A stretch of DNA of 64,000 nt. Origin: Eledone cirrhosa. Its lineage: Eukaryota. A model generated the notes under the pieces. That model saw nothing but the letters and a program-made list of their open reading frames with translations, searched no databases and was not told the origin of the DNA. How positions within the stretch are numbered: the first letter of the stretch is position 1; the number at the start of each line of letters is the position of its first letter. Where the stretch lies: contig OZ024740.1 in assembly GCA_964016885.1 (NCBI GenBank), positions 310,248,001 to 310,312,000 of the forward strand, given 5' to 3'. The position numbers and the translations under genes are program-made. Below are positions 3,275 to 63,596 of the stretch, piece by piece.

Positions 3275-4715
3275 ATTTTTTTATTAGCCACAGGGGCACA
3301 AAAGGATGGGACAAATACAAATAGGGAGTTTACATACAGGTATATGAAAATAAAACTATTAATAAAATAACAAATAACAATTGAAATCCCCAATATGGGG
3401 TTGTACACACCCCGAAAAAATGTACAACCCTCATCTCCAGGAGCACCAAGTACTCCCTTCATATCTTCCTCTTTGTCCTCAACCTACAGGCTTATATAGA
3501 GAGAAGGCCTAACCACTCGGGCCATCTTTGCCATATTCACCCACCTTTATAAAATGTGCTGGGGTACAGCACCTCTCTCTCCATCCTGATTTTTCTTCCA
3601 AAATGATATTTGAAAAAACGAATCATTGTTCGCCGGAGAGAAAGGTGTCTGACCTCAGCCCTTTTAAACACGTCCACCATATAACTTCTTTCACCATAGC
3701 CATAACACATAGGAAAACCGCCTCTCCTTCATTTTTGAAGGAGGGTGGCGGTTTGATCTTGACAATGGACTCGGTGGACTGGATTGGTCCCACCCGCGAC
3801 AATAGTCGTTCTACATAGCCCCACAGATCGGTAACGCCCGGGCAGTGTACAAATGCGTGCGCGACGGTTTCCCCGTCGCGCACGCATCTCGGACAGATCT
3901 TTTTCGAAGGGTCCCTGCCCAGGTGCCCGTGTCTGTACAGTTTGTCTCGAACTGGTAGAGCTCCTCGGTAGCACTGCCAGGCCAGGGACTTTTGGAAGTT
4001 GTCCATCGGTCCCGGGCGGAAGGTCGTCCTCCTCTACGCCCAGAATTACTCCGAGCGCGTCGTCGCACCTGCTGCAGACTAACCCTCTATAGAATGACGA
4101 AGTGGAGTCTCCACTGATCGCCTGGTCCGTTTGCCAGGGAACTGTGAGCGCCTGAGCACATTCGATGTGCCAGTCGCCCATTTTCCTCGGTCTTTGCTTT
4201 TCCCAGGACAGCAGCTCGGTCAGCAAGACGAGTCGTGGGAAGGCTCCCCTCACGAACGGGGCCCACACCGGTTGTCCGGTGATGAATACGTGGAGGTGCC
4301 GCAGCCTGAGCGCGTATTTACTCATCGTCAGCCACCACATCCCCAGCCCTCCGTTTGAAGGGTGTTGGCACAAATGGATCTTCTCACCAAAGGAGCCCGT
4401 TTCTTCCAAAGGAATTGGAAGAGCGCGTGCTCTATTTTGGTGAGCGTTTTGGCTGGACAAGGCACGACGGTCAAGCGGTAGTAGATGACTGACGCTATAA
4501 AAGTGTTCGCTACCTCCGCTTGACCTTTCAAGGATAGTTTTCACTCGGCCCACTTCTGGATGAGCGCAAACACCTTGGCCGTCACCTCGTTTCAGTTCTT
4601 CTTCACCTGGAGGTCTGGACCAAAGCAGACCCCTAGCAGCTTTACCGGTCCATCCGTCCAGCGTCCTAGGACGATATGGGAAGGCATCGGTTTGCCTCTC
4701 CACGTTCCGAGTTGC
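3275..4715 (-). mobile_element. Tx1/L1-clade LINE, 5'-truncated and frameshifted ORF2 C-terminus plus 3'UTR
   Basis: Peptides FIASVIYYRLTVVPCP, LCQHPSNGGLGM, CPRC...ETVAHAFVHC (zf-RVT-like) match the element at 47-50 kb. Confidence 0.9.
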
Positions 4716-4740
4716 AAGAGAGACATAGATAGTTAGATAG

Positions 4741-5028
4741 ATGTCTTTCTTTATTTGCCACAGGGGCGTACAAAAATGGGACATAACAAGACGTGACGGC
4801 GGGGGTTTTACATAAAAATCATATAACTTTAACATTAATAAATAACAATAAACTATATATAATAAAATAACAATTGAAATCCCGAACAGGGGGGAGCGTT
4901 ACTGCAGGGTTGATTTACACCCCGTGGATAGAACAACCCTCAACATCAGGAACACGTTTTGTAGGTGTTCCCGTCTTCCCTCTGTTTATCTTCATCAACC
5001 TACAGGTTTATACACAGAGAAGGCCCAG
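4741..5028 (-). mobile_element. Second Tx1-like 3'UTR fragment flanked by (GATA)n
   Basis: Similar to 3275-3510 (TTATT.GCCACAGGGGC...AACCTACAGG.TTATA...GAGAAGGCC). Confidence 0.8.
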
Positions 5029-6401: not shown

Positions 6402-7317
6402 TTCCTTTGTCAGTGTTGAACAAAAGGGCAACGATGGTTGCCGAACACTGTACGGCTTAATTCGGGCTGTTTGTTTACAAAGAAACCGAACATCATAATA
6501 AATATTCGGTAAACCCATACGTACATATATATATATATGTGTGCATGTCTGTATGTATATACATACTACTGTACGTTCCAATGTGGTTTACAATGTTCGG
6601 TTGCACTTCCATATGCATGACTTTTCTTCAGGCAACTATAAAACAAAGATGTCTGTTATTATTTACATAAGAACTCGTTCGTTTCAAAGGGCATTAGTCT
6701 ATGTTTTAATTAATTTTCTTTTTTCTTCAATTCAGGGGGAAATAACTATTACTAATTTATGCTTGTTCTTGTGTGGATACAAGACGTAGTATATGTACTT
6801 GTTTGTATGCATTTATACGTATCCTGCTGTGTACATATTTAAGGAGGTTATTATCTTAAGCTGAATAAGTGTTGAAGATTACTATACCATATTATACTAT
6901 CTCTATAGTTTAAGGATTGTATTCCAAAAGTGATCGCTCTCTCTCTATATATAATTATATATATAAATATATACATATATTTATATATATATAAACATAT
7001 TTTTGGTATACAAGGCCCTGAACAGGAACAGTGACAACGCCAGTCACCCTTGTTCAAATTCAAAGGCTATGTTTTATAGTAAAAAAACTTACTTTGAAGC
7101 TGTTGACATTACCTTTAAATTCATAATTCGTAACTGACTCAGTGGTTATGAAATTAGAATATGTATACTCATATACACGTATAGTGTGTATATGTGTATA
7201 TACCTATATTTAGTGATACAAACTGGGGAATACGAATGCCTCATAATTAAAGGCTAATTTCGCATATTTATTTATGTAGTTCTCTTCTTGAGATAACCAA
7301 GGTAATTTAAATTATCA

Positions 7318-7548
7318 TTAAGTTAGTATGTCTTTATTCTGTATAACTTCATACACCACCAACAAGGTCCCGAGGAGAGAGAGAATAAATTGAATAATGA
7401 GTGCGTGCTTGAACGAGTTAGAAATTGAGAGTCCAGCCGGAGAGCTCCCCAGACAAACTATATTGACGTAATCACAAATGTTATTCATGGATGAATAAGA
7501 AGGAATATCTGTGCCATCCTTCTTGGTGTGCTTGTAGTTGTCCCTACC
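7318..7548 (-). CDS. Candidate terminal coding exon with hydrophobic C-terminus (possible GPI signal or TM segment); unassigned
   Basis: Non-repetitive open frame after ttcag; ...ICDYVNIVCLGSSPAG...ALIIQFILSLLGTLLVV..*; weak polypyrimidine tract; no partner exons found. Confidence 0.25.
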   Translation of the reverse strand, partial: GRDNYKHTKKDGTDIPSYSSMNNICDYVNIVCLGSSPAGLSISNSFKHALIIQFILSLLGTLLVVYEVIQNKDILT

Positions 7549-8297
7549 TGAACTTTTGTATTGCAAACTTTATTGATAATCATTATTCCTGACAATGTTG
7601 TAATTTCTGTTGTTGCAGCAGCTGTCGTTAACGTCAATGTAATTAAACATTTTATTTCTCATTTCTACTTAAACAAGTCTACTGCAGGAGACAAGATCGT
7701 TGTGCATGTTCGATTTCCTATTGAAATCCACTTCCTTTTCTTTGGAACAACAAAATACTCAAACACACACACATACATACATACATACATACATACATAC
7801 ATACATACATACATACATACATACATACATACATACATACATTCATACATATATATATATCGATTTTGAGATAGCCACCAGTTGATACTCTTCACACATT
7901 ATTTTGCACAAACATGAATCTTTGACCCTGCCAAAAGTTTACATTCTTTCAGCATATGGTACACCGAAGGAAATATACATTTATTGGCTCATAGAACACA
8001 CGTGAATCGAAAGAATCAAACAATGAATTGCTGCCAGGTTTTTCCGATCGCTCGTTCTGATTCTCAAGAATGAAATTACCCAGATGGATGTTGCCTCATG
8101 ATCTTTCTGTTTCCAAAACACAGTTACAGTTATATATCAAGAAAATAAAAAGTCCCCCAAATTTTATTAAGCACTCAGTGAAAAATGTCTGATTGCGACT
8201 GCGTATAAGGGATTGTTCCGAATTGCGTCCGGTTTCAACATTTAATATATCGGGATATAAATTCGTAACTGTTTTGGAACCAAAAAGATCATGAATT

Positions 8298-8369
<72 letters not shown>

Positions 8370-8373
<4 letters not shown>

Positions 8374-8562
8374 AAAAGAGTCAGAACCCCGACGGGTGAG
8401 CTCCGGTCGTTTCGACAGCTACACCTAGCTGTTCTAGCTGTTGAAACGGCCGGAGCTCAGCCGTCGGGGTCCTGACTCTTTTCCTATTACCCACCCTACT
8501 ACCCAGTATCGAGTACTTTGGTGCGTTATGGCACACCTGGTTACTTACCACCCCTCCTTCGT

Positions 8563-8564
<2 letters not shown>
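8370..8564 (+). mobile_element. Short TA-flanked inverted element (family H), copy A
   Basis: Ends CTTCGTTA(TA)n; ~51-bp foldback 8370-8421/8435-8486; six copies in the window. Confidence 0.85.
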
Positions 8565-8599
<35 letters not shown>

Positions 8600-9462: not shown

Positions 9463-9517
<55 letters not shown>

Positions 9518-9520
<3 letters not shown>

Positions 9521-9700
9521 ACGAAGGAAATGTGGTAAGGAACCAGGTGGACCATAAGGCACCAAAGTACTCAATACTTAGGGTAGTAGAGTGGGTAATA
9601 GGAACGAGTAGGACCCCGACGGCTAATTCTGGACTAAAATCATTTTAGTCCAGAACTAGCCGTCGAAAGGGCTTGAGCTCAGCCGTCGGGGTCCTACTCG

Positions 9701-9703
<3 letters not shown>
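9518..9703 (-). mobile_element. Family H copy B
   Basis: TAACGAAGG..GTGGTAAGGAACCAGGTGGACCATAA..; foldback 9602-9624/9681-9703 with an internal long hairpin. Confidence 0.85.
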
Positions 9704-9753
<50 letters not shown>

Positions 9754-19023: not shown

Positions 19024-19052
<29 letters not shown>

Positions 19053-19605
19053 TCGGAGTATCGCTAATAGCATTCTCTGTTAATGTATTAAGTATATATA
19101 TATATATATACATTTTAAGAGTAAACCAATCTTAAAGAGAGAGATGGATATATGAGAGGAAAAGAGAGATTGGTGAATTTGTTAGAAGCCAAAAGCGAAA
19201 AGGCATATGCTCAATGTGCAATATGCATCAGAAGGCAGCTAGATGGCTGGCTTCATGCAGAGATTAGGTGCACAGAGCTGAAAATATTCATTAGTTAAGC
19301 AAAACAGAAATGGAAAGACCCATCCAACACTTCATCAACCGCATGCAGTTCTCTGGCTACAACTAAATAGACAGAATCAGAGTATACGAAGGAGCCACGG
19401 AGAAGTATAAGACCCTCATAGAACTGGACATGAAAGAAATTTGCCCATTATACAGGAGCAAATCATGGAATAGCTTAGATAGGACTAGACATAAGATAGG
19501 GAAAGCCAGAGATACCAGAGTGTCATGTTTGTGGACGCTACCCTTGGAGGGAAATAAGCTAACCAGTGTAGAAAGGCCCTGAGAAAGACCCACTTAAAGA
19601 ATAAG

Positions 19606-20079
19606 GTGGTAGAAAAGCCAAGAACCACCATAACATCCCTGATCAGCAAAAGATACTCTTTTAAGAAAACCCACTGTACTAATAGGAAATGTATCATATG
19701 TAAGGTAAACCTCCGGATAAAGTGTAAAACTAGAAACGTAGTCCATAGCATAATATGTACAGAGGGTACTTGCAGAAACATGACAACAACATACATAGGC
19801 GAGACAGCTCGTAGCATAGGTGAAAGGATAGACCAACACTGGGGGGAACTAAAAGGACGAAAAAACGGTTCAGTACTATACGAACATGCCAGACAACAAC
19901 ACGACGGTAATATAGACGAGATAGAAATTAGAATAATATCTAAACATAGAAATGACCCAGCAGATAGGCAAATCAGAGAGGCCAGTGAAATAGAACTTAG
20001 AAGGCCAAGGCTATACAGAAAAAATGAATGGAATAACAACAACAACCAAACAAACAACCCTGACTTAAGAGAAGTATAA
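19606..20079 (+). pseudogene. GIY-YIG endonuclease domain of the upstream partial PLE copy
   Basis: CTNRKCIICK..KC linker; VVHSIIC...YIGETARSIGERIDQH...EH...RQIREA. Confidence 0.88.
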
Positions 20080-20348
20080 ATAAATAAATAAATAGATAAA
20101 TAAATAAATAAATACATACACAAGCACAATAACAACAAACACATATAAACACACACTAGTAAGGATAGAATACATTAACCAATACACAGTCACCCAATCA
20201 CGAACACACATCAAACAAAACACTATACACACACGCAAACGCATGCGCAAAGAAGACAAAATAAAATAAACAAATAAATAAATATATAAACAGACTAAAT
20301 AAAGATGGCGTAGAAAATACAATGCAACGGGAGGAAACAATAGCACCA

Positions 20349-20384
20349 CTGACGATGTTGCAGATGTGCAACGAAAGAACTTTG
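20349..20384 (+). ncRNA. Hammerhead-like motif in the PLE pLTR (second copy 24556-24591)
   Basis: CTGACGA-T-GTTGCAgatgTGCAAC-GAAA-GAACTT; helices I and III are weak. Confidence 0.55.
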
Positions 20385-20566
20385 ATAAACTTTGATATGT
20401 GTTTGTTGTCTATATTGTATCTGTATTTTTGACCGTTGGGCAGTCACTGGCAACATTGAGGACTGAATAAATTAGATTACCGATATAAAAGACACAGAAG
20501 CGAAAAGCGAAAACCAACCAAAGAGTGAGTGTGTTCTGTTATTAATTCTGGCAATATTACACAAAT

Positions 20567-23500
20567 ATGACCCTCGCCAAGTATAACAATATTTGTTTCG
20601 ACACACGATTTCATATAAAAAACCTCGCAAAACTAATTCATCGCCGTTATGGCATTAGCTTGTGCCAAGCTGAAAGGTTATTGAAAGACACTGTTTTCTG
20701 TTATATAAAACAACAATAACAACAGAACAAATCCGCTTCTGTGTTTCCTCCAAAAATACACAACAAACATATCAAAACAAGTAAATAATTATTATTTAAC
20801 AAAACACAAGCTGAACGACTAAAACACACAATAACAGTAAATATGAAAAGAACAACATACACATAAGTCAACGAAATTTACAGACAGAAACGCATTAACG
20901 GTAACGAAGTCCAAAATCTCACCACACCAAACGAAAGAGATGACTTCATGAGCGTCATCTGACGTGAAACGAAATAAGCCCGAAACGAATGCAATAGGCA
21001 TTTCAATAAGAAATTAGAATGGATGAATAAGAAAAAACTAGAAGAAAGGAAAATAGAATATTCTCAAAAATAGCCAGATAACATCAACAATATCCGTATG
21101 ACTGATGTAAAACTACCGGAAGAATTTACCAATGACCACACAGTAAATATTTATTGGAACACTTTAATCAGTGAACAAGAACAACAAATCCTGCAGCTCA
21201 CCACAAAAATTTGCCATCTACAAAAAGATTAACCCTATTGAGTGCAAAACGGAGCTGGAAGAGTGTTTCACAAAAATACGTTGGAATGCAAAAGTAAACA
21301 ACAACAACAACAACAACTATACGGACAACAACAACAATAATAACGGTAGTAGTAATATAAACAATAATTCTGAGTATAGAAATAACAGTAATAGTCATAA
21401 CAATAACAATAGCAGGAGAGTGAGAAATAGTAATAATGGTAATAATATTAACGATAGACAGAACAACAACAACAACCACAATAATAATAATAATAATAGA
21501 AACATTAACTACAGGCACAACAGCAGCGACCACAGTACTAATAACGGTAACAATACGAATAACAACAACAACCACAGTGGTAATAATAGAAATAATACAT
21601 GTAGCAACATTAATGATAGACACAACAAAAACAAGAAACATAATAAAAGTAACAACCACAATGGTAGAAATAACAGTAACAACAACAATAACGGTGAAGA
21701 AAACAACAGTCACAGCAACAATACATCTAGCAATCATAACAACAATACATCTAACAATCACAGCAACAATACATCTAGCAATCATAATAATAATAATGTT
21801 AATGATAGGAACAACAACAGCCACCATGATAACAATAATAGCAACACACACAACTATGACGATAGATATAATGACAACCCCTTAGAGAAACTATTCTTCA
21901 ACCCAGCTGACAAAACATATAAGATGGGTAATATCTATCCTACGAGGTTACCCTTTAATAAAAGAGTTTGCATACCACAACAAATAGATGACGAGACAGA
22001 GGCACAGTTCACCATAGCTAGAAATGAGATTAGACAAATGGTAGACCGGTATACTAAGAGACAGAGCAGACCAGAGGTCCAACAATTTGGGAGGAAACCT
22101 GTAGAAGGCTTGGTTAGCCTCAAGCAGCGCACAAGGGATGATGAGGTAGTATGTCTACACACGGATAAGTCTGGTAGGATGTCAATAGATAGCATGCCGA
22201 ACTACATCGAGGCTATGCAAACCCACATCACCAACACGAACGAAAATGCACAGCAAATACATGATGGGAGAGAGTAAATCCTCAACGATCACATGATGAT
22301 GTGGACTGACATCCTAAAGCCAAGCAGACGCACTGCCAACAACTTCCAGGCGTCTAACAATGGCATACCACCCTTGTATGGGCTCCGCAGAGACCACAAG
22401 ACAGTCGACGACCCGACAACAGGACCACCAACAAGACCCGTATGCGGAGCTAATATAGCTAGCAACTATAGGATCTCCTACTTCCTCTCAATGGTTATAC
22501 GCCTCATAATCAAAATGTCCCCAGATGTATGTGACAGTACAGAGGAGCTCCTCAGCAGAATTAGTGAGTGCAACAAAAACAGGAACCTATCCAACTGCAT
22601 AATAGGCACCATGGATGTGGTATCACTGTACCCATCCGTTAACATTGATTTTGCTGTGGAAAAATGTGTGGAGATGATCATAGAGAGTGAGATGGATTTC
22701 TGCGACATCGACACAGACGAACTGGGCCTCCTACTTAGACTTACCTACGACACTGACTACCTAGACAGCCATGACCTTAGACGTTTCTGCCCCAGTAGAC
22801 CCATAAGGGGTAGACCCCCCACCATAACCTCAATGGCTAAAAAGACTCCCATGGGAAGGTGGATTGGGTGGGCCAAAGCTATACGGACCTCCCAAAACAA
22901 TGATCAGGTAAGAAAAATGGTCGCACATGCAATAGGGGCTAGTATCAAAACTACTCTAAAGTGCCACATATTCAAGTTCAACGAGAAGATCCACACCCAA
23001 CATGAGGGAGCAGCCATTGGCGTCAGCATAGCTGGTGACGTTGCCAAACTTTTTATGGTATGGTGGGAAAGGAGACTTAAAGATCTCCTTAATGAGAGCT
23101 CCATAGACCTCATCATGTACTCTCGTTACGTAGACGATATCAATATAGTTATAAGAACATCCCCACAAGAGAGCACTAACAAGTTTGATTTAGAACGTAG
23201 CACAATGAAAAGCATCCAGCAGATAACTAATTCCATAGACCAGAGTATAACTGTAACTATAGACTACCCTTCCAAACACCCTACAATAGACTACCTGTAT
23301 TAGACACGGAACTCTGGATTAACACTATAGACGAGAGAGCTCAAATTCTCCACTTACACTATGCTAAACCCATGGCCTCCAAATACCTGATACTCAAAAT
23401 CTCAGCAATGTCCAGTAGTGCTAAGTTTGATATTCTGATCGCAGACTTGGTCCGAGTGATGAAGAACGTGTCCCGCATGTGCGACCCAACATAAATGGAA

Positions 23501-24282
23501 AGACCCATCCAACACTTCATCAACCGCATGCAGTTCTCTGGCTACAGCCAAAGAGACAGAATCAGAGTATACGAAGGAGCCACGGAGAAGTATAAGACCC
23601 TCGTAGAACTGGACATGAAAGGAATGTGCCCATTATACAGGAGCAAATCATGGAATAGCTTAGATAGCACTAGACATAAGATAGGGAAAGCCACCTCATG
23701 GTACGACAACCAGAGATACCAGAGTGTTATGTTTGTGGACGCTACCCCTGGAGGGAAATTAGCTAACCAGTGTAGAAAGGCCCTGAGAAAGACCCACTTA
23801 AAGAATAAGGTGGTAGAAAAGCCAGGAACCACCATAAAATCCCTGATCACCAAAACCTACCCTTTTAAGAAAACCCACTGTAATAATAGGAAATGTATCA
23901 TGTGTAAGGTAAACCCCCGGATAAAGTGTCAAACTAGAAACGTAGTCTATAGCATAAGATGTACAGAGGGTACTTGCAAAAACATGACAACAACATACAT
24001 AGGCGAGACAGCTCGTACATAGATGAAAGGATGGACCAACACTGGGGGGAACTAAAAGGATGAAAAAACGGTTCAGTAGAATATGAACATGCCAGACAAC
24101 AACACGACGGTAACATAGACAACATAGAAATTAGAATAATATCTAAACATAGAAATAACCCAGCAGATAGGCAAATCAGAGAGGCCAGTGAAATAGAACT
24201 TAGAAGGCCAAGGTTAAACAGAAAAAATGAATGGAATAACAACAACACCCAAACAAACAACACTGACCTAAGAGAAGTATAA
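20567..24282 (+). pseudogene. PLE ORF (N-terminal domain, Asn-rich tract, RT, GIY-YIG) disrupted by frameshifts and stops
   Basis: MTLAKY..LIHRRYG start; TDKSG, PPLYGL..DHK, TRPVCGA, MDVVSLYPSV, QHEGAAIG, YSRYVDD; VYSIRC..YIGETAR. Confidence 0.9.
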
Positions 24283-24810
24283 ATAAATAAATAAATAAAT
24301 AGATAAATAAAAAAATAAATACACACACAAACACAATAACAACAAACACATATAAACACACACTAGTAAAAATAGAATACATTAACCAATACACAGTCAC
24401 CCAATCACGAACACACATCAAACAAAACACTATACACACACGCAAACGCATGCGCAAAGAAGTCAAAATAAAATAAGCAAATAAATAAATATATAAACAG
24501 ACTAAATAAAGATGGCGTAGAAAATACAATGCAACGGGAGGAAACAATAGCACCACTGACGATGTTGCAGATGTGCAACGAAAGAACTTTGATAAACTAT
24601 ATATATGTGTTTGTGACTATATTGTATCTGTATTTTTGACCGTTGGTCAGTCAATGGCAACATTGAGGACCGAATAAATTAGATTACCGATATAAAAGAC
24701 GCAGAAGCGAAAAGTGAAAACCAACCAAAGAGTGAGTGTGTTCTGTTATTAATTCTGGCAATATCACACAAATATGACCCTCCCCATGTATATATATATG
24801 TATGTATATA

Positions 24811-24914: not shown

Positions 24915-25419
24915 CAACCTGTCTCGTGGTCGGGTCGTTGGCAACTATACTCGCAACCCCACCAAGGTTTCTTGGTGATGAGGGTGACTTTGGACATCCT
25001 GCAGGACTAAAAACAAAACCTGTCAAAGGGGAAAGGAGCTCTTAAGAGTCAATGGCCATCTAAAATCACCGGGAGAGATGACCCCTTAGCCTTTGTCAAG
25101 GCGGAATTCTAGGAGAAGGAAAACTCTGATATAACACCTGCAACCCTGATGGTATCCAATGATGTTGACTTGTACTTCTGTTTGGTAAATATCATCTTGG
25201 TTAAGAGAGTGGGACTGGCTTTGTGCAGTGCCTTTGTTCACTATAAAAGCTTCACGGCACAGGCATTGCTGTATATCTGGAGATCTCTCTGCACTTGTCA
25301 TCACATGGTACCATCGGCCCAGCACTATGTGTCAATAATTGTCACAGGTATAGTGTTTGTACCAGAGTTTTCAAGTCGCTGGCTAGACTAAAATGTCACA
25401 CTCGTTCAGCGCACGGTAG
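24915..25419 (+). mobile_element. Non-autonomous RTE-derived element (5'UTR-like head joined to a zinc-finger 3' end)
   Basis: CTAGGAGAAGGAAAACTCTGAT motif typical of RTE 5'UTRs; CTRVFKSLARLKCHTRSAH; matches both copies at 56.3-57.2 kb. Confidence 0.7.
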
Positions 25420-26249: not shown

Positions 26250-27560
<1,311 letters not shown>

Positions 27561-30778: not shown

Positions 30779-30782
<4 letters not shown>

Positions 30783-30908
30783 AAGGAGGTGTGGTAAGGA
30801 ACCAGATAGACCATAACGTACCAGAGTACTCAATACTTAGGGTAGTAGAATGGGTAATAGGAAAATGTTTAACTTGAGCTCTGCCATCGGGGTTAAACAT
30901 TTTCCTAT
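30779..30908 (-). mobile_element. Family H copy C
   Basis: Same terminus; foldback ATAGGAAAATGTTTAAC/GTTAAACATTTTCCTAT. Confidence 0.85.
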
Positions 30909-39270: not shown

Positions 39271-39716
39271 ATTATTTGGAATAAATTAATACAACTTAAT
39301 AATGTATCAGTATATTTTATAATATATAAATGTGTAAGCCTACCTATAAATTATTACAGTATAATGAATTTTAACATAAGTGTTTTTCAAAGTATATGGA
39401 GATAGTTGAATTTATTTGCTAAACGTCTGTTTAATATATATTTATCCCCTGAAATTATAAAAATTATGGCATCGAATGCAATAAGGCATCCCTATCAACT
39501 ATATTCAAGTATTTATTTTTATCAAGGTCAAATTGAGAAGTTGGATAACATATTAATTTTTAAAATCTATCATATAATCTGTATAAGTATTAATAAGGAT
39601 TCAGTATCAGGTTAAGCATTCGTTGAAGTAAAGATTGTTAGTTGACATATCTTTCTCTCATTTGCTCTGTATATATATATATATATATTACCACACTTAC
39701 TTCGTTATATATATAT

Positions 39717-39887
39717 ATAACGAAGTAAGTGTGGCAAGTAACCAGGTGGACCATAACGCACCAGTGTACTTGATACTTTGGGTAGTAGAGTGGGTAATAG
39801 GAAAAGTGTCTGGACCCTGACGGCTGTTCAGAACTAGCTGTCGAAACGGCCGGAGCTCAGCCGTCGGGGTCCTGACTCTTTTCCTAT
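39717..39887 (-). mobile_element. Family H copy D
   Basis: Same terminus and foldback ending TTTTCCTAT; an extra short inverted end piece at 39688-39706. Confidence 0.85.
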
Positions 39888-39900
39888 TTCATTGTTTTAA

Positions 39901-47169: not shown

Positions 47170-50100
47170 CTATAGGCGCATGGTCAGAGTAGGCCCATTC
47201 ACACGAGCCATTCTTGCCACATTCACCCACCTTTTAGCAAATGTACTGGGGGACAGCACTTCTCTCTCCACCCTCACCCTCCTTTCCAGGTGAAACTTGA
47301 AGAAGTTGATGAGGGATTGGCCGAAGAGAAAAGTGTCTGTCTTTAGTCCTTTCAACCTGGTCCACCATATAATCTCTTTCGCAACTGCCACCAGACAGAG
47401 GAAAATTTCCTGCTCTTCCTCACCTAAGGAAGGTGGCGGCTCGATCTTCACTATGAACTCGGCCGATAGCCGGATTCGTTCCACACGCGACAGTAGCTGT
47501 TCGACCTAACTCCACAAGTCAGTAATGCACGGACATTGGACAAGTGCGTGCAGAACGGTTTCGTCGTTCTGTGCGCATCTTGGGCAGGTCCGTCTGACAG
47601 CACTTCCGTGCCTGTAGAGTTTATCCCGAACCGGCAGTGCCCCCCCCCCCCCCCCGGTAGCACTGCCAAGCGAGGGATTTCTGGAAATTGTCCATCGTCC
47701 CCGGCTCAAAAGTCCTCCGGTACAGACTGGTCAGTTCGACTTCGTCGAGGCCCAAAGTTTCTCCGAGTGCGTCATCGCACTTGCCCACCACTAATCCTCT
47801 ATAGAACTCGAGAGTGGAAGTTCCACTGATCGCATTGCCCGCTTGGTAGAGGGCAGTGAGTGCCTGGCAACATTCCAGGTGCCAGTCACCCAGTCTCGGT
47901 CTCTTCTTGACCCAGGACTGCAGCTCAGTCAAAGAAATGAGCTGCGGAAAGGCCCGTCTGATAAACGGCGACCACACCTGTTCACCATTGAGGTAGAATA
48001 TCTGCAGATGTCTCAGCCTCAACGCATGTCTGCGCATCATTAGTCACGTCATACCCAGCCCTCCGCGTAGAGGGTGCTGGCAGCAGATGGACCGCCTCAC
48101 CAACGGAATTTGTCCCATCCACAAGAATTTGAAGAGGAGCCGTTCCAACTTGACGAGGCGCGGACGGGGGCAAGGCACGACGGTTAGGCGGTAGTAGATG
48201 ACGGACGCGATGTACGCATTCCCCACCTCCGTGCGACCTTTCAGTGATAGCTTCCTCCCAGCCCATTTTTGGGTGAGACCGGCTACTCTGCTCGTTACCT
48301 CGTCCCAACTCTTTTCCACCTGGAGGTCTGGTCCGAACCAAACCCCGAGCAACTTTACTGGTCCGTCCGTCCAGCGCCCCACGACGCTGTTGGACGGCAT
48401 GGGCTTGCCTCTCCAGGTTCCGAGCTATGTTTGGCTCCTGTCACACCTTTCATATTCCTTCAATAAGGGGCCGACCACCTCGATTTCTGAGGTGTTCGAC
48501 ACCATCACGGTGATGTCGTCCGCATAGGCCGACACCGCCTTTCCACGTCCCGGTTCGAGCGGGATGCCCTGCAACAGCTCCAGCTTTCGCAGTAAAGGCT
48601 CGAGAGTCAATACGTACAGAAGGGAAGAGAGAGGGCACTCTTGACGTACCGATCGGGAGAGCCGAAATGGTTCCGAGAGGTGGCCATTAACCTTGACCAC
48701 CGAGCGTGTGCCGCTGTGCATTGCAACGATCCAGCTTCTAAAGCCAGGGCTTTGAGGACAAACTCCAGATACCGATGGTCGACCCTATCGAATGCTTTCG
48801 ATTGATCTAAATTGATCAGTACCCCACCGAATCCAGGTTTACACCCTACCCTCTCTATGATGTATCGCATGAGGTGGAGATTGTCGTGTATGGACCTGGC
48901 TGGGATTGCGCCTCCCCAACCAAATCCTCGACGACAAGCGCCAATCTCTTTGCTAACACCTTGGCCAACATCTTAAACTTTGTGTTGAGCAGAGTTATGG
49001 GCCTGAAGTTGTCTAATGTATCCCTCTTGTTCTCGTCTTTCCTTATCAGCGTCACCACTCCCCTGCTCACAGAACTGGGAATACTCCCATTCTGCTGCCA
49101 GTTGCAGTAGAGTACTTCGAGGAGTTCGGAGAACAAGTCTGGCATATTTACGTAAAGCTCGCTAGAGCAGGCCATCCAAACCGGGTGACTTGCGCCTCAT
49201 GCAGCCGACAGGGGCGTCCTGAATTTCGGCTGAAGTAATCGGCCTTTCGCAGCGCTCAGCGTCGACCGTCGAGATGCGCGGCAAGCCGTCAAGGTAGGGA
49301 CTGAAATCCGCTATTCTCTCTGACTCGCCACTCTCCCTGAACAACCGAGCAAAGTGCTGGCGAAAGGCCTCACACATCCGCTTGGAATCGCTTATCTCGT
49401 GTCCGTCTCGGTCCGCCAAAGACCGAATTGTGGTTTTATTACCACGCTGCGCCTCCGCCACGAGGGCCCATCGAACAGCTTTAGTTCCCTCGTTTCTCAG
49501 CGCACGCGCCTTAGCTCTGACAATGCAACCTTCGTGTTTGGCATTGAAGAAATGGTCTAATGCCATTCTCGCCGCTAGCACGTCAGTTGCGATGCCACTA
49601 CAAATAGCCTCGTCTAACTTATCTACCAGCTCCCCCTCCTTTCTATTTTTCTCTAACGCTAGTTCTTTGCTGAACTCTATCAAAGTTACTCTAATCTCTC
49701 TTTTGAGAGCCTCCCACCACCTGTTGTTGATTATCCCCCCTGTCAACTTTTGCTTAACTAAATTGTAGACCGTCCCTGTAAGCCTTACGTGCCGGAAATG
49801 ATATGTTCAGCTTCCAGTAACCCGGTCCTAACCTACGCGTTTTATTTAGGTCGACCGTACAGATCACAAATTTGTGATCTGAATAGGCGACCGTTTTAAA
49901 AAGTGGACAGCCCACACTATTTCTATCTATTTTCCTAATGAAGATCCTGTCTATATACGATCTAGATGACCCCATTCGGTTGGTCCATGTCCATACTGGC
50001 ACATTGGGGAAATCTAGTCTATACCTGTCAGACAGTTGGAACTGGCTGAGTAGGTGCTTGAGGCTTTTGCACCCCCCGCTCCTATTGGCTACTCCCACAC

Positions 50101-50553
50101 AATCCCAGCGTGCGTCTAAGATGCCATTCCAGTCCCCCGCTAACAGTAAAGGGCGAGACGTAACCAGAAAGGTCTCCAGGCGCCTAAAGAAGTCAGGTCG
50201 TCCGGCCCCTGTAGGGGCGTAGACGGCCAGCAGTCTAAAGGCACCACCTTCGCTACTGCTCACATCCAAGACCACCAACTTACCGTCCGGGTCCCGGAAG
50301 ATCGACCTTACCTCGAGATCCAGTCCTTTCCTTAACAGCACTGCCACCCCACCGCCCATTCCCGGCCTGCTAACAGATGCGAAGATCTGATAGTCGTCGA
50401 AAATGGGGGCTAGTGCGCGCATGTCGGAAATTCTGGTCTCGCTTACGGCAATCACATCCATTTCCAGTGACCGGAGGTCGTTGAGCAGGCGACCCTGCTT
50501 CCAGGTGACCCCAGGCCGCGAACATTTAAACTTCCTACTCTTAATATGGCCAT
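47170..50553 (-). pseudogene. ORF2: APE endonuclease, RT and zf-RVT; frameshifted
   Basis: SLNVRG, AVSET, AVYAP, AGDWN, SYIDR, YSDH; KSPGLDGL, NFRPITLLN, LDQSKAFDRVDH, SVRQECPLS, YADD; CPRC..ETVLHALVQC. Confidence 0.93.
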
Positions 50554-50562
50554 ATTGGTAAG

Positions 50563-52148
50563 CTAAGAGAGAGAGAGGGAAAGTTTACTTACCTCCCGGG
50601 TCTTGTGAAGGTCGGGTGGTTCGACCTCCATGGTTGGTGGGGTTTCTTTTGGGAACCCCTTTAAAAGTCTTGATGTGGGTTTCACATTCGGGGTGCCCAC
50701 GTCTTGAGGAAAGCTCTCTCGAATTTTTTTGAAGGAATTGAGTGACATTCGGACCAGAAGCAAATCTTCTGGCACGCAAAATGTGCTCATTTCAAAAATC
50801 TCCCCCTCTGTTTGAATGTCCTCGCTTCGGGCTAAGAGGGCCATCAGTTTATCGTTGGCCCTTCTGACAAGCACGAAGTTTTTTACATTTTGTTGGTGTG
50901 GTTTTATTTGTTTTCGTTTTGGTGAAGGTGGTGGCGATGGTTTTGGTGGTGTTGTTTCGGGTATGTCTATGTTTGTTGTAGGTGAGGTGTCTGCAATTTC
51001 AGGTATTTGTGTGTTTATTCGTACTTGTGTTTGTTTAGGTTGTTTGCGTTTCGGGGATTGTGGAGGTGGTGTCGATGTTGCTGTTGGTGATGATGTTATT
51101 GGGAAGAGTTTGCGTTAGTGGTGACTGTATTTTTTGTTGTGTTTTGTTGGGGCTTTTTTTTTTGTGAGTTTTCTCTGATTTTTTGCACTTTTGGGTTTTC
51201 CTTCATCTTCGCTGCTGGAAGACAAAGGGTATGTGTCTGTGAGTGTCTCTGTGTCTGTGTGTGCGTTTATTGTCTTGTCTATGTGTATAATTGGGGGGTA
51301 GGGGGAGTGGGAGAGCTTTCCTCGTTTTCTCCTTTGATTGGTTTTGGTGTTGGTGGTGCTCCGGCTGCTTTTGATGTTGGTGTCCGTGTTTTTGTTGATG
51401 TTGGTTTTGGTGGTGATGGTGGTGCAGCTTTCCGTGCTGACACTGGCGTTGGCAACAAAGGAGGTTTGCGACCCCCTGCATTTTTGCGCTGAGGGCAGAA
51501 GGCTTGAAGATGCGTTGCTTCCTCGCAGACGAAGCAGCGTGGCCTTCTTCCGTCAATCATTAGTTGGATTGTTGTCCCGTCCTGCAGGCGGGCAAAATTC
51601 GGGATGTTATTCATATCCTCCGGTTTCATTTGGAGAAGAATCTCCAAATCCATTCCGGACCAGTCCTCTCTCTCTGTCCTTTTGATGTCCAGGAGGGTAG
51701 TGTCTGTCCCCTCCTCGATTACGCATCCCAGCAGCCACCATATGTTCATTCCTGGTGGGATGCTGGGAATGCGTACCTTCACTGTCCTTTTACCCATATA
51801 AGACGGATGCATGATAATGCGTTCCGTTCTGCAGGGGGTCACCGAGTGCTTAATAGCGAGGGAATCGGTTTTGAACAGTACCGAGATGGTACCGAACTGT
51901 TTGCCTCTTGCTTTGTACTCTATGTTACTTCCGATGTACTCCAAAGCAGCCTCTACCTCTGCTTGGCTCGCAAGTTCCACTTTTCGTGTCTGCACCGAAA
52001 TACATCGAAAGAACACCGTCCTCCTTTGCATGGCCGCTATTGCCTCGTCCGGGATGGTCAGGTTTGCCCAGGACTTCTCCCGTTTAATTAGCCTCCACGC
52101 TTTGGCCAACTGTTCGTCTTTATCGCTAATATCAATATCAATATTCAA
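50563..52148 (-). pseudogene. ORF1 (gag-like, CCHC knuckle, Pro/Thr/Lys-rich region); open 51279-52148, then frameshifted
   Basis: GRRPRCFVCEEATHLQAFCP (CX2CX4HX4C). Confidence 0.82.
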
Positions 52149-52247
52149 TAAGCGCTTTGTTTTTGCTGCTGCTGCTGCAGCAGATGTGGTGTTTCTGATG
52201 CTCTTATTGTTGTTGTTGTCATTCTTGCTGTTGTTATTGGTATAATA

Positions 52248-52423
52248 ATAATTGTTTCTACTTTTGGCACAAAGCCAGTAAAACCCAGTACATTACTGGT
52301 ACTTAATTTTATCGACCCCGTGTGGATGAAAGGCAAAGTTAACCTCGGCGGGATTTGAAATTAAATCATAAAGGGCTGAAACTCTATGCTGCAAAGCATG
52401 GCGTCCGACTCTCTACCGATACT
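52248..52423 (-). mobile_element. SINE
   Basis: Core and tail motifs. Confidence 0.9.
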
Positions 52424-56076: not shown

Positions 56077-56081
<5 letters not shown>

Positions 56082-56213
56082 AAAAAGTATGACCCAGACG
56101 GCTTGAGCTCTGCCGTCGGGGTCATACTTTTTCCTATTACCCATACTACTCCCCTAAGTATTGAGTACTCTGGTGCGTTATGGTCCATCTGGTTCCTTAC
56201 CACAATTCCTTCG

Positions 56214-56216
<3 letters not shown>
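56077..56216 (+). mobile_element. Family H copy E
   Basis: Foldback ATAGGAAAAAGTATGACCC.GACGGC/GCCGTCGGGGTCATACTTTTTCCTAT; ends CTTCGTTA(TA)n. Confidence 0.85.
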
Positions 56217-56286
<70 letters not shown>

Positions 56287-56349: not shown

Positions 56350-57219
56350 ATGGTGGCTGCCAACTCGTTTTCGAGTACGGCCACTACTTTATATCCATGT
56401 AGGAGAACCCCTACCGATGCGCTGAACGAGAGTGACTTTTTAGTCCAGCCAGCGACTTGAAAACTTTTGTACAAACACTACACTTGTGACAATTATTGAC
56501 ACATAGTGCTGGGCCCATGGTACCATGTGACGACAAGTGGAGAGAGATCTCCAGATATAAAGCAATGCCTGTGCCGTGAAGCTTTTATAGTGAGCAAAGG
56601 CACTGCACAAAGCCAGTCCCACTCTCTTAACCAAGATGATATTTACCAAAAAGAAGAACAAGTCAACATCATTGGATACCATCAGGGTTGCAGGTGTTAT
56701 ATCAGAGTTTTCCTTCTCCTAGAATTCTGCCTTGACAAAGGCTAAGGGGTCATCTCTCCCGGACATACATACATACATACATACATACATACATACATAC
56801 ATACATACATGGTGGCTGCCAACTCGTTTTCGAGTACGGCCACTACTTTATATCCATGTAGGAGAACCCCTACCGATGCGCTGAACGAGTGTGACTTTTT
56901 AGTCCAGCCAGCGACTTGAAAACTCTGGTACAAACACTACACTTGTGACAATTATTGACACTTAGTGCTGGGCCCATGGTATCATGTGACGACAAGTGCA
57001 GGGAGATCTCCAGATACAAAGCAATGCCTGTGCCGTGAAGCTTTTATAGTGAGCAAAGGCACTGCACAAAGCCAGTCCCACTCTCTTAACCAAGATGATA
57101 TTTACCAAAAAGAAGAACAAGTCAACATCATTGGATACCATCAGAGTTGCAGGTGTTATATCAGAGTTTTCCTTCTCCTAGAATTCTGCCTTGACAAAGG
57201 CTAAGGGGTCATCTCTCCC
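56350..57219 (-). mobile_element. Two tandem ~410-bp non-autonomous RTE-derived elements with (ATGT)n tails
   Basis: 56350-56762 and 56810-57219 are near-identical, separated and flanked by (CATA)n. Confidence 0.85.
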
Positions 57220-63287: not shown

Positions 63288-63357
63288 TATATCATATATA
63301 CTTGGAAATAAATATTGTATATATAAATATATATATATATACATGTATATATATATC

Positions 63358-63596
<239 letters not shown>

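Follow-up and report, generated by a model that had tools for sequence, protein, structure and literature searches.

The question raised by this locus is how short elements with constant outer ends come to have inner junctions that differ from copy to copy. In a 64,000-nucleotide stretch of the Eledone cirrhosa genome (contig OZ024740.1, positions 310,248,001 to 310,312,000; this whole stretch is the window, and its positions are counted from its first letter), six TA-flanked elements, termed family H, share one end and carry an inverted segment that stops at a common internal site. A preliminary description proposed that both cut ends of a (TA)n target prime cDNA at two fixed TA-containing sites on the RNA and that the cDNAs are then joined by microhomology, a stereotyped form of twin priming that would yield hairpins of variable length. 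A blastn search with the six copies against the window recovered each of them where it had been reported, and no seventh.

Six copies built on one plan

Template positions are given relative to the A of a conserved TTAGT (+1); on this scale site 1 lies at +141, and site 2 at +61 or, in subfamily A, at +63. Each stub has (TA)n on both sides and is made of two arms that meet at a variable junction, an inverted one stopping at site 2 and another stopping at site 1, which lies 80 nt further 3'. All six window copies are ORF-less. Copy 1 (subfamily A) follows a (TA)n target on its site-2 side (8306..8371) and begins with a minus-strand site-2 arm (8369..8421, template +63..+11), continues through a 12-nt junction insert of which 9 nt are copied from the arms (8422..8433), and ends with a plus-strand site-1 arm (8434..8565, +10..+141) that comprises the 3' half of a hammerhead-like motif, site 2 read through, and a 78-nt tail, next to the (TA)n target of the site-1 side (8563..8582). 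Copy 2 (9519..9707, minus strand, subfamily B1) has a site-1 arm that runs from +140 to +35 and skips to +19..-3, a 5-nt insert, and a site-2 arm from -3 to +61, and is flanked by TA runs at 9465-9516 and 9705-9752. In copy 3 (30781..30908, minus strand), a site-1 arm from +137 to about +47 is joined to a site-2 arm from +26 to +61.

Copy 4 (39717..39888, minus strand, subfamily A) joins a site-1 arm, +141..+34, to a site-2 arm, +2..+64, and about 14 non-TA bases separate its site 2 from (TA)51. Copy 5 (56077..56217, plus strand, subfamily C) consists of a site-2 arm and a site-1 arm (+22..+141) that share 5 nt of microhomology at their join, a stretch belonging to hammerhead stem III. Copy 6 (63353..63480, minus strand, subfamily C) has arms that do not overlap, from +141 to +72 and from +1 to +61, so that +62..+71 are missing, with ACT/TAGT microhomology at the join. 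Across a short TA run from copy 4 lies an extra 21-nt inverted tail piece (39688..39708, plus strand, +121..+141). This fragment (39688-39717), like another at locus L004, faces the site-1 end with few TA units between, and shares copy 4's private variant; perhaps such fragments are aborted first primings.

Several details of the preliminary description shifted on parsing. The common site-1 end was confirmed, with three copies clipped or mutated there (9518, 30779, and 63358) rather than two. The exact word TTTTCCTAT of the internal motif is missing from the 9518 copy, which belongs to a different subfamily. Of the two junction microhomologies named, TAGT was found in the 63353 copy, and GACGGCT proved to mark an internal skip within one arm of the 9518 copy rather than its head-to-head junction.

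Other repeats share the window. A dispersed SINE-like family (D17/D20), possibly similar to cephalopod SINEs, occurs at 1533-1704, 13597, 18884, 31092, 38414, and 57921, and a 345-nt repeat is present in three copies that are 95-96% alike (25069-25413, 56418-56762, and 56877-57219). LINE-like remnants lie at 47982-52292 (minus strand), 3729-4898 (minus strand), and 26662-27513, with RTE-like RT fragments; an endonuclease/exonuclease/phosphatase frame is found at 49754-50584 with an ORF1-like frame adjoining.

Outer ends are fixed across the genome and coupled to each other

An HMM survey of 560 kb of the 3.0-Gb genome, sampled at round coordinates as 56 stretches of 10 kb, gave 23 insertion clusters, in which 32 of 37 arms stopped within 2 to 4 nt of site 1 or site 2. 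Extrapolated from this 560-kb sample, the genome holds about 123,000 copies (Poisson range, 78,000 to 185,000), making the density in the window about twice the average. Exact patterns for subfamily B1 found the site-2-to-TA junction 9,794 times and the read-through form 9,509 times, with 0 matches to control patterns, and 2,341 site-2-to-TA junctions were found for subfamily A. Outer ends are thus fixed across the genome, not scattered. Contigs of unassembled runs also contained loose TA ends at both sites, which are therefore not an assembly artefact, and showed a depth step over +1..+141 (depth being rough). Both sites end in TAT ahead of the onward template (TAT|TACCC and TAT|CTAGC), and these TAT ends agree with the phase of the target in every subfamily read.

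The two outer ends are coupled, with one fixed site used at each. When a single gap window was applied to both forms, 3,819 hairpins combined a site-2 end with a read-through arm, compared with 42 site-2/site-2 matches, 1 of which is a deleted mixed copy (L191). Site-1/site-1 matches numbered 32 in a different gap window, with some of them inspected, and parsed TA-flanked pairs were mixed in 129 cases versus 1. Pairing of one site per end therefore reaches 99%, where independent choice would yield about 1:2:1. Because site-2/site-2 and mixed forms have equal stem length, instability does not explain the scarcity of the former. This strict pairing supports the proposal that both cut (TA)n ends prime cDNA at two fixed TA-containing RNA sites.

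A parent element with Hydra-clade features

Walking upstream from long arms led to a parent-like locus (L162), which contains, in order, (TA)n, an inverted site-1 arm, the junction, a 5' pLTR, the tail, RT and EN frames, a 3' UTR, a pLTR, site 2, and (TA)n. Read-through of site 1 into the ORF leader gave 316 matches, some of them tandem arrays; array units measure 3,531 to 3,543 bp, with an ATG at +232 and open 716-aa frames. An upstream parent with an RT/GIY-YIG ORF, as the preliminary description had anticipated, was thus found at L162 and in the tandem arrays. The single ORF encodes the motifs YRDD and IYQ..YIG..R..H..E..N, an RWR at position 36 (R36 and W37 are conserved at 90% or more across 117 aligned sequences) without G.K[FY], DKT in place of DKG at position 116, a linker CxCX5C (C571-C573-C579), and CxxC/CxH residues around E and N (C669/C672, E675, N688, and C697/H699), and lacks CCHH.

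At least 2,214 proteins match this sequence at E values up to 1e-30, with identities of 39 to 54% among the matches listed. An alignment-based model reached a pLDDT of 93.6 (a single-sequence fold gave only 32), and its best fold matches in the PDB are telomerase RTs (TERTs). Sequence searches of the PDB gave no significant match, and Pfam searches on five frame fragments gave no significant match for either RT or GIY-YIG; Atlas neighbours of the parent protein carry HTH_animal, GIY-YIG, and RVT_1 domains.

The Hydra clade of Penelope-like elements (PLEs) is defined by RWK, DKT, CxCX5C, the absence of CCHH, CxxC/CxH residues, and a (TA)n target (PMC8557442). Family H likewise has a single ORF with a C-terminal GIY-YIG, the RW(K/R) motif (as RWR without GxKF/Y), DKT, CxCX5C, no CCHH, CxxC and CxH, and (TA)n insertion, and by these sequence features is the short end of a Hydra-clade PLE, a new family of a known clade. 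Its single RT/GIY-YIG ORF, tandem and pLTR units, and inverted 5'-truncated copy with a tail at one end are also those of EN+ PLEs. Given the Hydra-clade parent and the matching layout, the overall structure is therefore the already known PLE arrangement of "inverted pLTR plus tail," here mostly without the ORF. The family is young, with open frames and arms only 1 to 3% apart in the B subfamilies. Judged by eye, it is a family distinct from Hydra-1_Obim (Craig et al. 2021, PMC8557442), from which it differs in the N terminus and pLTR, and two exact-word probes were absent from the text of that paper's supplement. Family H also departs from the clade as that paper describes it in having a 3.5-kb unit instead of one under 3 kb, an atypical hammerhead-like core, about 10^5 ORF-less hairpins, and a tail of 78 to 80 nt rather than 30 to 40 bp (PMC8557442).

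Other candidates for the parent or its class were set aside. Assignment to the Neptune clade was dropped because the protein fits the Hydra definition, L052/L082 represents another PLE that bears a 21-nt family H arm and has an unrelated 3' end, and a PLE at 19050-24790 of the window differs in its pLTR. The last is a decayed, partially tandem element with an RT (YVDD) at 22278-23303 and a GIY-YIG with CxxC/CCHH-type residues that is Neptune-like by motif. Near 20348 and 24551 it carries minimal hammerhead words, and at about 21300-21870 an Asn-rich insert of the kind known from rotifer PLEs; it has TAT at both end sites, the downstream site being read from one locus (L283). Insertions of the same hairpin-plus-tail type, often nested in the same TA runs, come from at least three further families that target TA and carry hammerhead words (L109, L116, L125, and L283).

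Inner junctions differ from copy to copy

Junctions were compared in 134 parsed insertions, 21 of which came from loci of two biased searches, and in a cleaner B1 set of 71. Distinct junctions accounted for 128 of the 134 and 66 of the 71, so no single pre-formed MITE was amplified. A MITE or SINE amplified as a unit would match the fixed outer ends, TA flanks, hairpin shape, and many copies, but it is refuted by this junction diversity; the terminal repeats are moreover not terminal, being followed by an 80-nt tail, the copies are continuous with an RT/EN parent, and they have neither one internal sequence nor true TIRs, leaving unit amplification with practically no chance of being correct.

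Among the 71 insert-free joins in the set of 134, 27 have microhomology of at least 4 nt, compared with 1.9% at random. Inserts are present at 63 of the 134 junctions, and 16 of 29 inserts that are 8 nt or more in length copy arm sequence, some of them being mis-parsed internal skips. In the B1 set of 71, microhomology of 2 nt or more was found in 24 and inserts in 29. The proposed joining of cDNAs by microhomology therefore holds as one mode and fails as the sole mode, given the 63 junctions with inserts. Joining by polymerase theta leaves scars of microhomology and templated inserts like these.

In 116 of 134 insertions the two arms have at least 10 nt of template in common, and in 12 they do not overlap. 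In L1 twin priming, two cDNAs abut without large overlap, and the second priming site is variable. Family H is similar in that both target ends probably prime, a segment is inverted, and the inner junction has microhomology; it differs in its fixed second site, the absence of poly(A) priming, and arms whose usual overlap creates hairpins, and with such overlap in 116 of 134 and a fixed second site it does not represent twin priming of the L1 type. The preliminary notion of a stereotyped twin-priming route is supported as regards double priming, and was too loose about length, which is capped by template edges at +1 and +42.

Overlapping arms could also arise if one cDNA or antisense RNA folded back and was copied to site 2. 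Junctions do often fall on palindromic words (GAGCTC, TCGA, AGCT, and AATT) and hammerhead stems, and variants are common to both arms, as self-priming would have it. A fold-back nevertheless predicts a nested site-2 arm, and in 50 of 134 and 23 of 71 insertions the site-2 arm passes the 5' limit of the site-1 arm by at least 10 nt; arms without overlap (12 of 134, including window copy 6) and untemplated A runs on both arm ends also speak against it. As a general route it is refuted, since it fails for at least a third of copies; it could persist for 30 of 134 nested cases, and overall we judge it very improbable.

An inner edge at +1

The inner ends of arms were mapped in a set of 313 that was not selected on the inner end, after three biased target sets and arms scoring under 15 were dropped. 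Of these ends, 177 lie at -8..+10, 1 lies at -40..-9, and 18 are further upstream. The B1 junction set, comprising 99 of the first 100 junctions listed (the one left out being the distal end of a site-2/site-2 pair), was similarly divided into 66, 1, and 9 ends. Oligo-A follows straight after +1 on both cDNA ends at L288, L294, and L297, with single runs at L183 and L194. Among 30 read-through loci, 8 template jumps at 7 loci depart from -2..+4 and land at +203..+959, and one further jump departs from +42. The arm stops, oligo-A, and jumps at +1 therefore mark a physical template end.

The loci with jumps are L213, L215, L217, L237, L239, L240, L212, and L233, with two successive jumps landing at +254 in L213. 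Jumps from the RNA 5' edge are a possible route to tandem arrays. At L242, about 7250-8200, a tandem array gives way at its 5' end to a 46-bp tandem repeat taken from the ORF, which suggests repeated slippage or jumping.

The words TTTAGT or TTCAGT are kept in all subfamilies though the loop otherwise differs, and the B types carry a TATA word, TATTTAAA, at -29, which subfamily A lacks. This element resembles the initiator consensus. From the DNA edges and these motifs, +1 is probably the transcription start. Transcription of D. virilis Penelope also begins within this region (PMC2377424).

Alternatively, +1 could be a processing cut, such as the 3' product of cleavage and polyadenylation in the 3' pLTR, or loop II of the hammerhead could strongly arrest the RT, with the rest of the scheme retained. 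An AATAAA at about -17 in B3 (GATAAA in B1 and B2), the TATA word missing from subfamily A, and the lack of any excess of a cap-derived G at -1 (T 56, C 13, G 12, and A 5 of 86) are in keeping with this. AATAAA is, however, no better conserved than the TATA word, the conserved element being TTTAGT/TTCAGT, and arms that pass +1 hardly ever stop in the next 40 nt (1 of 313), unlike at a leaky pause. A splice acceptor as the cause of the edge was rejected because the ends retain AG, and hence no cut was made at +3. On balance, processing or an RT stop at +1 seems doubtful, and a transcription start is preferred.

A second inner edge at +42

The pLTR folds into a hammerhead-like motif of three stems, with GAAA in place and GUC at +39..+41. 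In its stems 97% of cells are paired, with one compensatory pair only, and its core reads UUGANAA or CUGAGAA, an atypical form with U3-A8 or C3-A8. U3-A8 hammerhead variants are active. Because +1 sits inside hammerhead loop II, the motif can form only in read-through RNA. Rfam gave no match at gathering score in the window, nor at E values up to 10 over the pLTR. A search for the canonical CTGANGA core within 36 nt of GAAA returned 59 heterogeneous matches, mostly chance or chimeric, and was discarded; the variant core lies about 60 nt upstream.

Site-1 arms stop at +41..+50 in 12 of the 71 B1 insertions. Genome-wide, double-ended mini-hairpins numbered 62 for +42..+38, 108 for +47..+43, and 1 for +37..+33, and although the last pattern holds more CpG, this cannot explain a sixty-fold deficit. 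In many of the 62, short A/T inserts separate two arms that both end exactly at +42, whereas among the first 50 listed about 15 might be joins over a 2-nt CG overlap. A single-arm search gave 321 matches at +42 versus 43 at +38, with 39 of the first 100 listed resembling 1-nt insertions, and was set aside. In the 134-pair sample, double stops at +41..+50 were not significant (2 observed, 0.65 expected, 632 of 5,000 shuffles). This second inner edge coincides with the predicted hammerhead cut site.

One RNA or two

Arms of the same insertion resemble each other more than shuffled arms do. In a test of 89 pairs, minor variants shared between arms amounted to 0.0025 per site in B1 versus 0.0002 shuffled and to 0.0136 versus 0.0044 in subfamily A, and 0 of 500 shuffles reached the observed values. 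Double stops near +1 were also in excess, with 61 observed versus 52.8 shuffled (12 of 5,000 shuffles).

We infer, as the best explanation of the parent, the fixed TAT sites, their pairing, the two inner edges, and the junction scars, that both cut target ends were probably primed on one element RNA and then end joined to give two-armed hairpins. In this scheme, the RT/GIY-YIG protein, probably a dimer as predicted for another PLE, would nick both strands of the self-complementary (TA)n, and each 3' end, ...ATA, would likely pair with UAU at site 2 (+61) or site 1 (+141), one per end. With a pLTR at both RNA ends, priming on the 5' copy would let both cDNAs run off at +1, capping hairpins near 200 bp. 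Where the template was instead the 3' product left by hammerhead self-cleavage, cDNAs would stop at +42, and priming on the 3' pLTR would give the long ORF-bearing arms (about 9%). The site-1 cDNA would usually cross template from which the site-2 cDNA had already been made, and with both on one RNA this requires strand displacement. Run-off ends may gain untemplated A or jump template and be trimmed, after which the 3' ends would be joined to each other via microhomology or templated patches, in a manner like that of polymerase theta, and filled in. Every hairpin would thus be dead on arrival and individually made.

The chief competitor places each cut end on its own RNA, usually from one active locus, with an asymmetric complex setting the sites. 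Overlap of the arms in 116 of 134 insertions then requires no displacement step, and two RNAs would readily accommodate pairs whose arms stop at different edges (+1 for one arm, +41..+50 for its partner), arms joined to those of other PLE families, and jumps that land 3' of the priming site. The mixed stops were seen in 10 of 134 pairs, in which the site-2 arm reached +10 or further and the site-1 arm stopped at +41..+50. On the other side, 99% one-site-per-end pairing would demand an additional rule under two RNAs, the +42 double stops (62 versus 1) and shared private variants are simpler on a single molecule, and subfamily-discordant arms are few (about 2 to 4 among 89 pairs, by eye). Against the single-RNA reading, gene conversion, or the use of several RNAs transcribed from one active locus, could also account for the shared variants. 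Separate RNAs as the rule are unlikely in our estimation; a single RNA as the usual template, joined by second RNAs in a minority of insertions, appears reasonably probable.

Head-to-head joins or jumps to other PLE families were observed at L019, L033, L042, L052, L130, and L155 in unselected sets of roughly 200 insertions. Such loci are single TA-bounded insertions in which the joined arms belong to two PLE families or to distant subfamilies. They were also seen at L112, L115, L116, L125, and L127, in a set selecting for them, and at L279; some two-family joins could reflect deletion between adjacent insertions.

Relation to known systems and implications

The closest experimental parallel is PAc, a Poseidon PLE from Anolis, for which two RT start sites bound the tail, both strands are nicked and extended, and a dimer is predicted (Frangieh et al. 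2024, PMC11167929). Its priming in vitro needed neither homology between RNA and target nor hammerhead cleavage (PMC11167929). Family H shares with PAc the two internal start sites around the tail, extension of both strands, and an AT-rich target, and has a hammerhead-like motif just upstream; it differs in having TAT at the end of each site and in the minority of its arms that stop at the predicted cut. In its accessible text, the PAc study reports neither pairing of sites between ends nor a reason for inverted copies. The mechanism sketched in the preliminary description is therefore broadly right and was partly anticipated in vitro for another PLE (PMC11167929).

Inverted PLE structures were called unexplained by Craig et al. 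2021 (PMC8557442), and antisense self-priming was proposed for rotifer PLEs by Arkhipova et al. 2013 (PMC3846280). The inverted pLTR plus tail of PLEs (PMC3846280; PMC8557442 Fig. 2) is, like family H, head-to-head and 5'-truncated with the tail at one end; family H differs in being mostly ORF-less and bounded by two template edges (PMC3846280). Non-LTR retrozymes (bioRxiv 10.64898/2026.07.22.740005) and MITEs are similarly short, noncoding, pLTR-derived, and high in copy number; family H, in contrast, has no tandem monomers or unit amplification and has its own junction in each copy. In the literature outside subscription papers and Repbase reports, we found no coupled site use, start-site hairpin cap, or cDNA ends at a hammerhead cut. 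The formation of tandem and inverted PLE structures and the role of the hammerhead are named as open questions in PMC8557442 and PMC11167929.

More generally, PLE integration may be obligately two-ended, with one RNA, a fixed UAU for each cut end, a telomerase-style 3-bp register, and extension to the RNA 5' end, a proposal on which we are evenly balanced. With its open 716-aa frame and a template of 141 nt, the family lends itself to direct in vitro tests of each claim. Family H is young and very abundant, and adds a quantitative in vivo footprint of PLE integration; its products are short enough for the whole to be read, and so provide counts that any model must meet, namely, 99% pairing, edges at +1 and +42, and TAT sites. 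The hairpins are liable to be misannotated as MITEs and have added about 10^5 short palindromes to the genome. If the two-ended reading is true, the inverted pLTR plus tail of all EN+ PLEs would be explained without antisense self-priming, the edge at +42 would be the first trace, left in vivo on transposition templates, of PLE hammerhead cleavage, and the MITE-like hairpins, some 100,000 in number, would each have been built from scratch.
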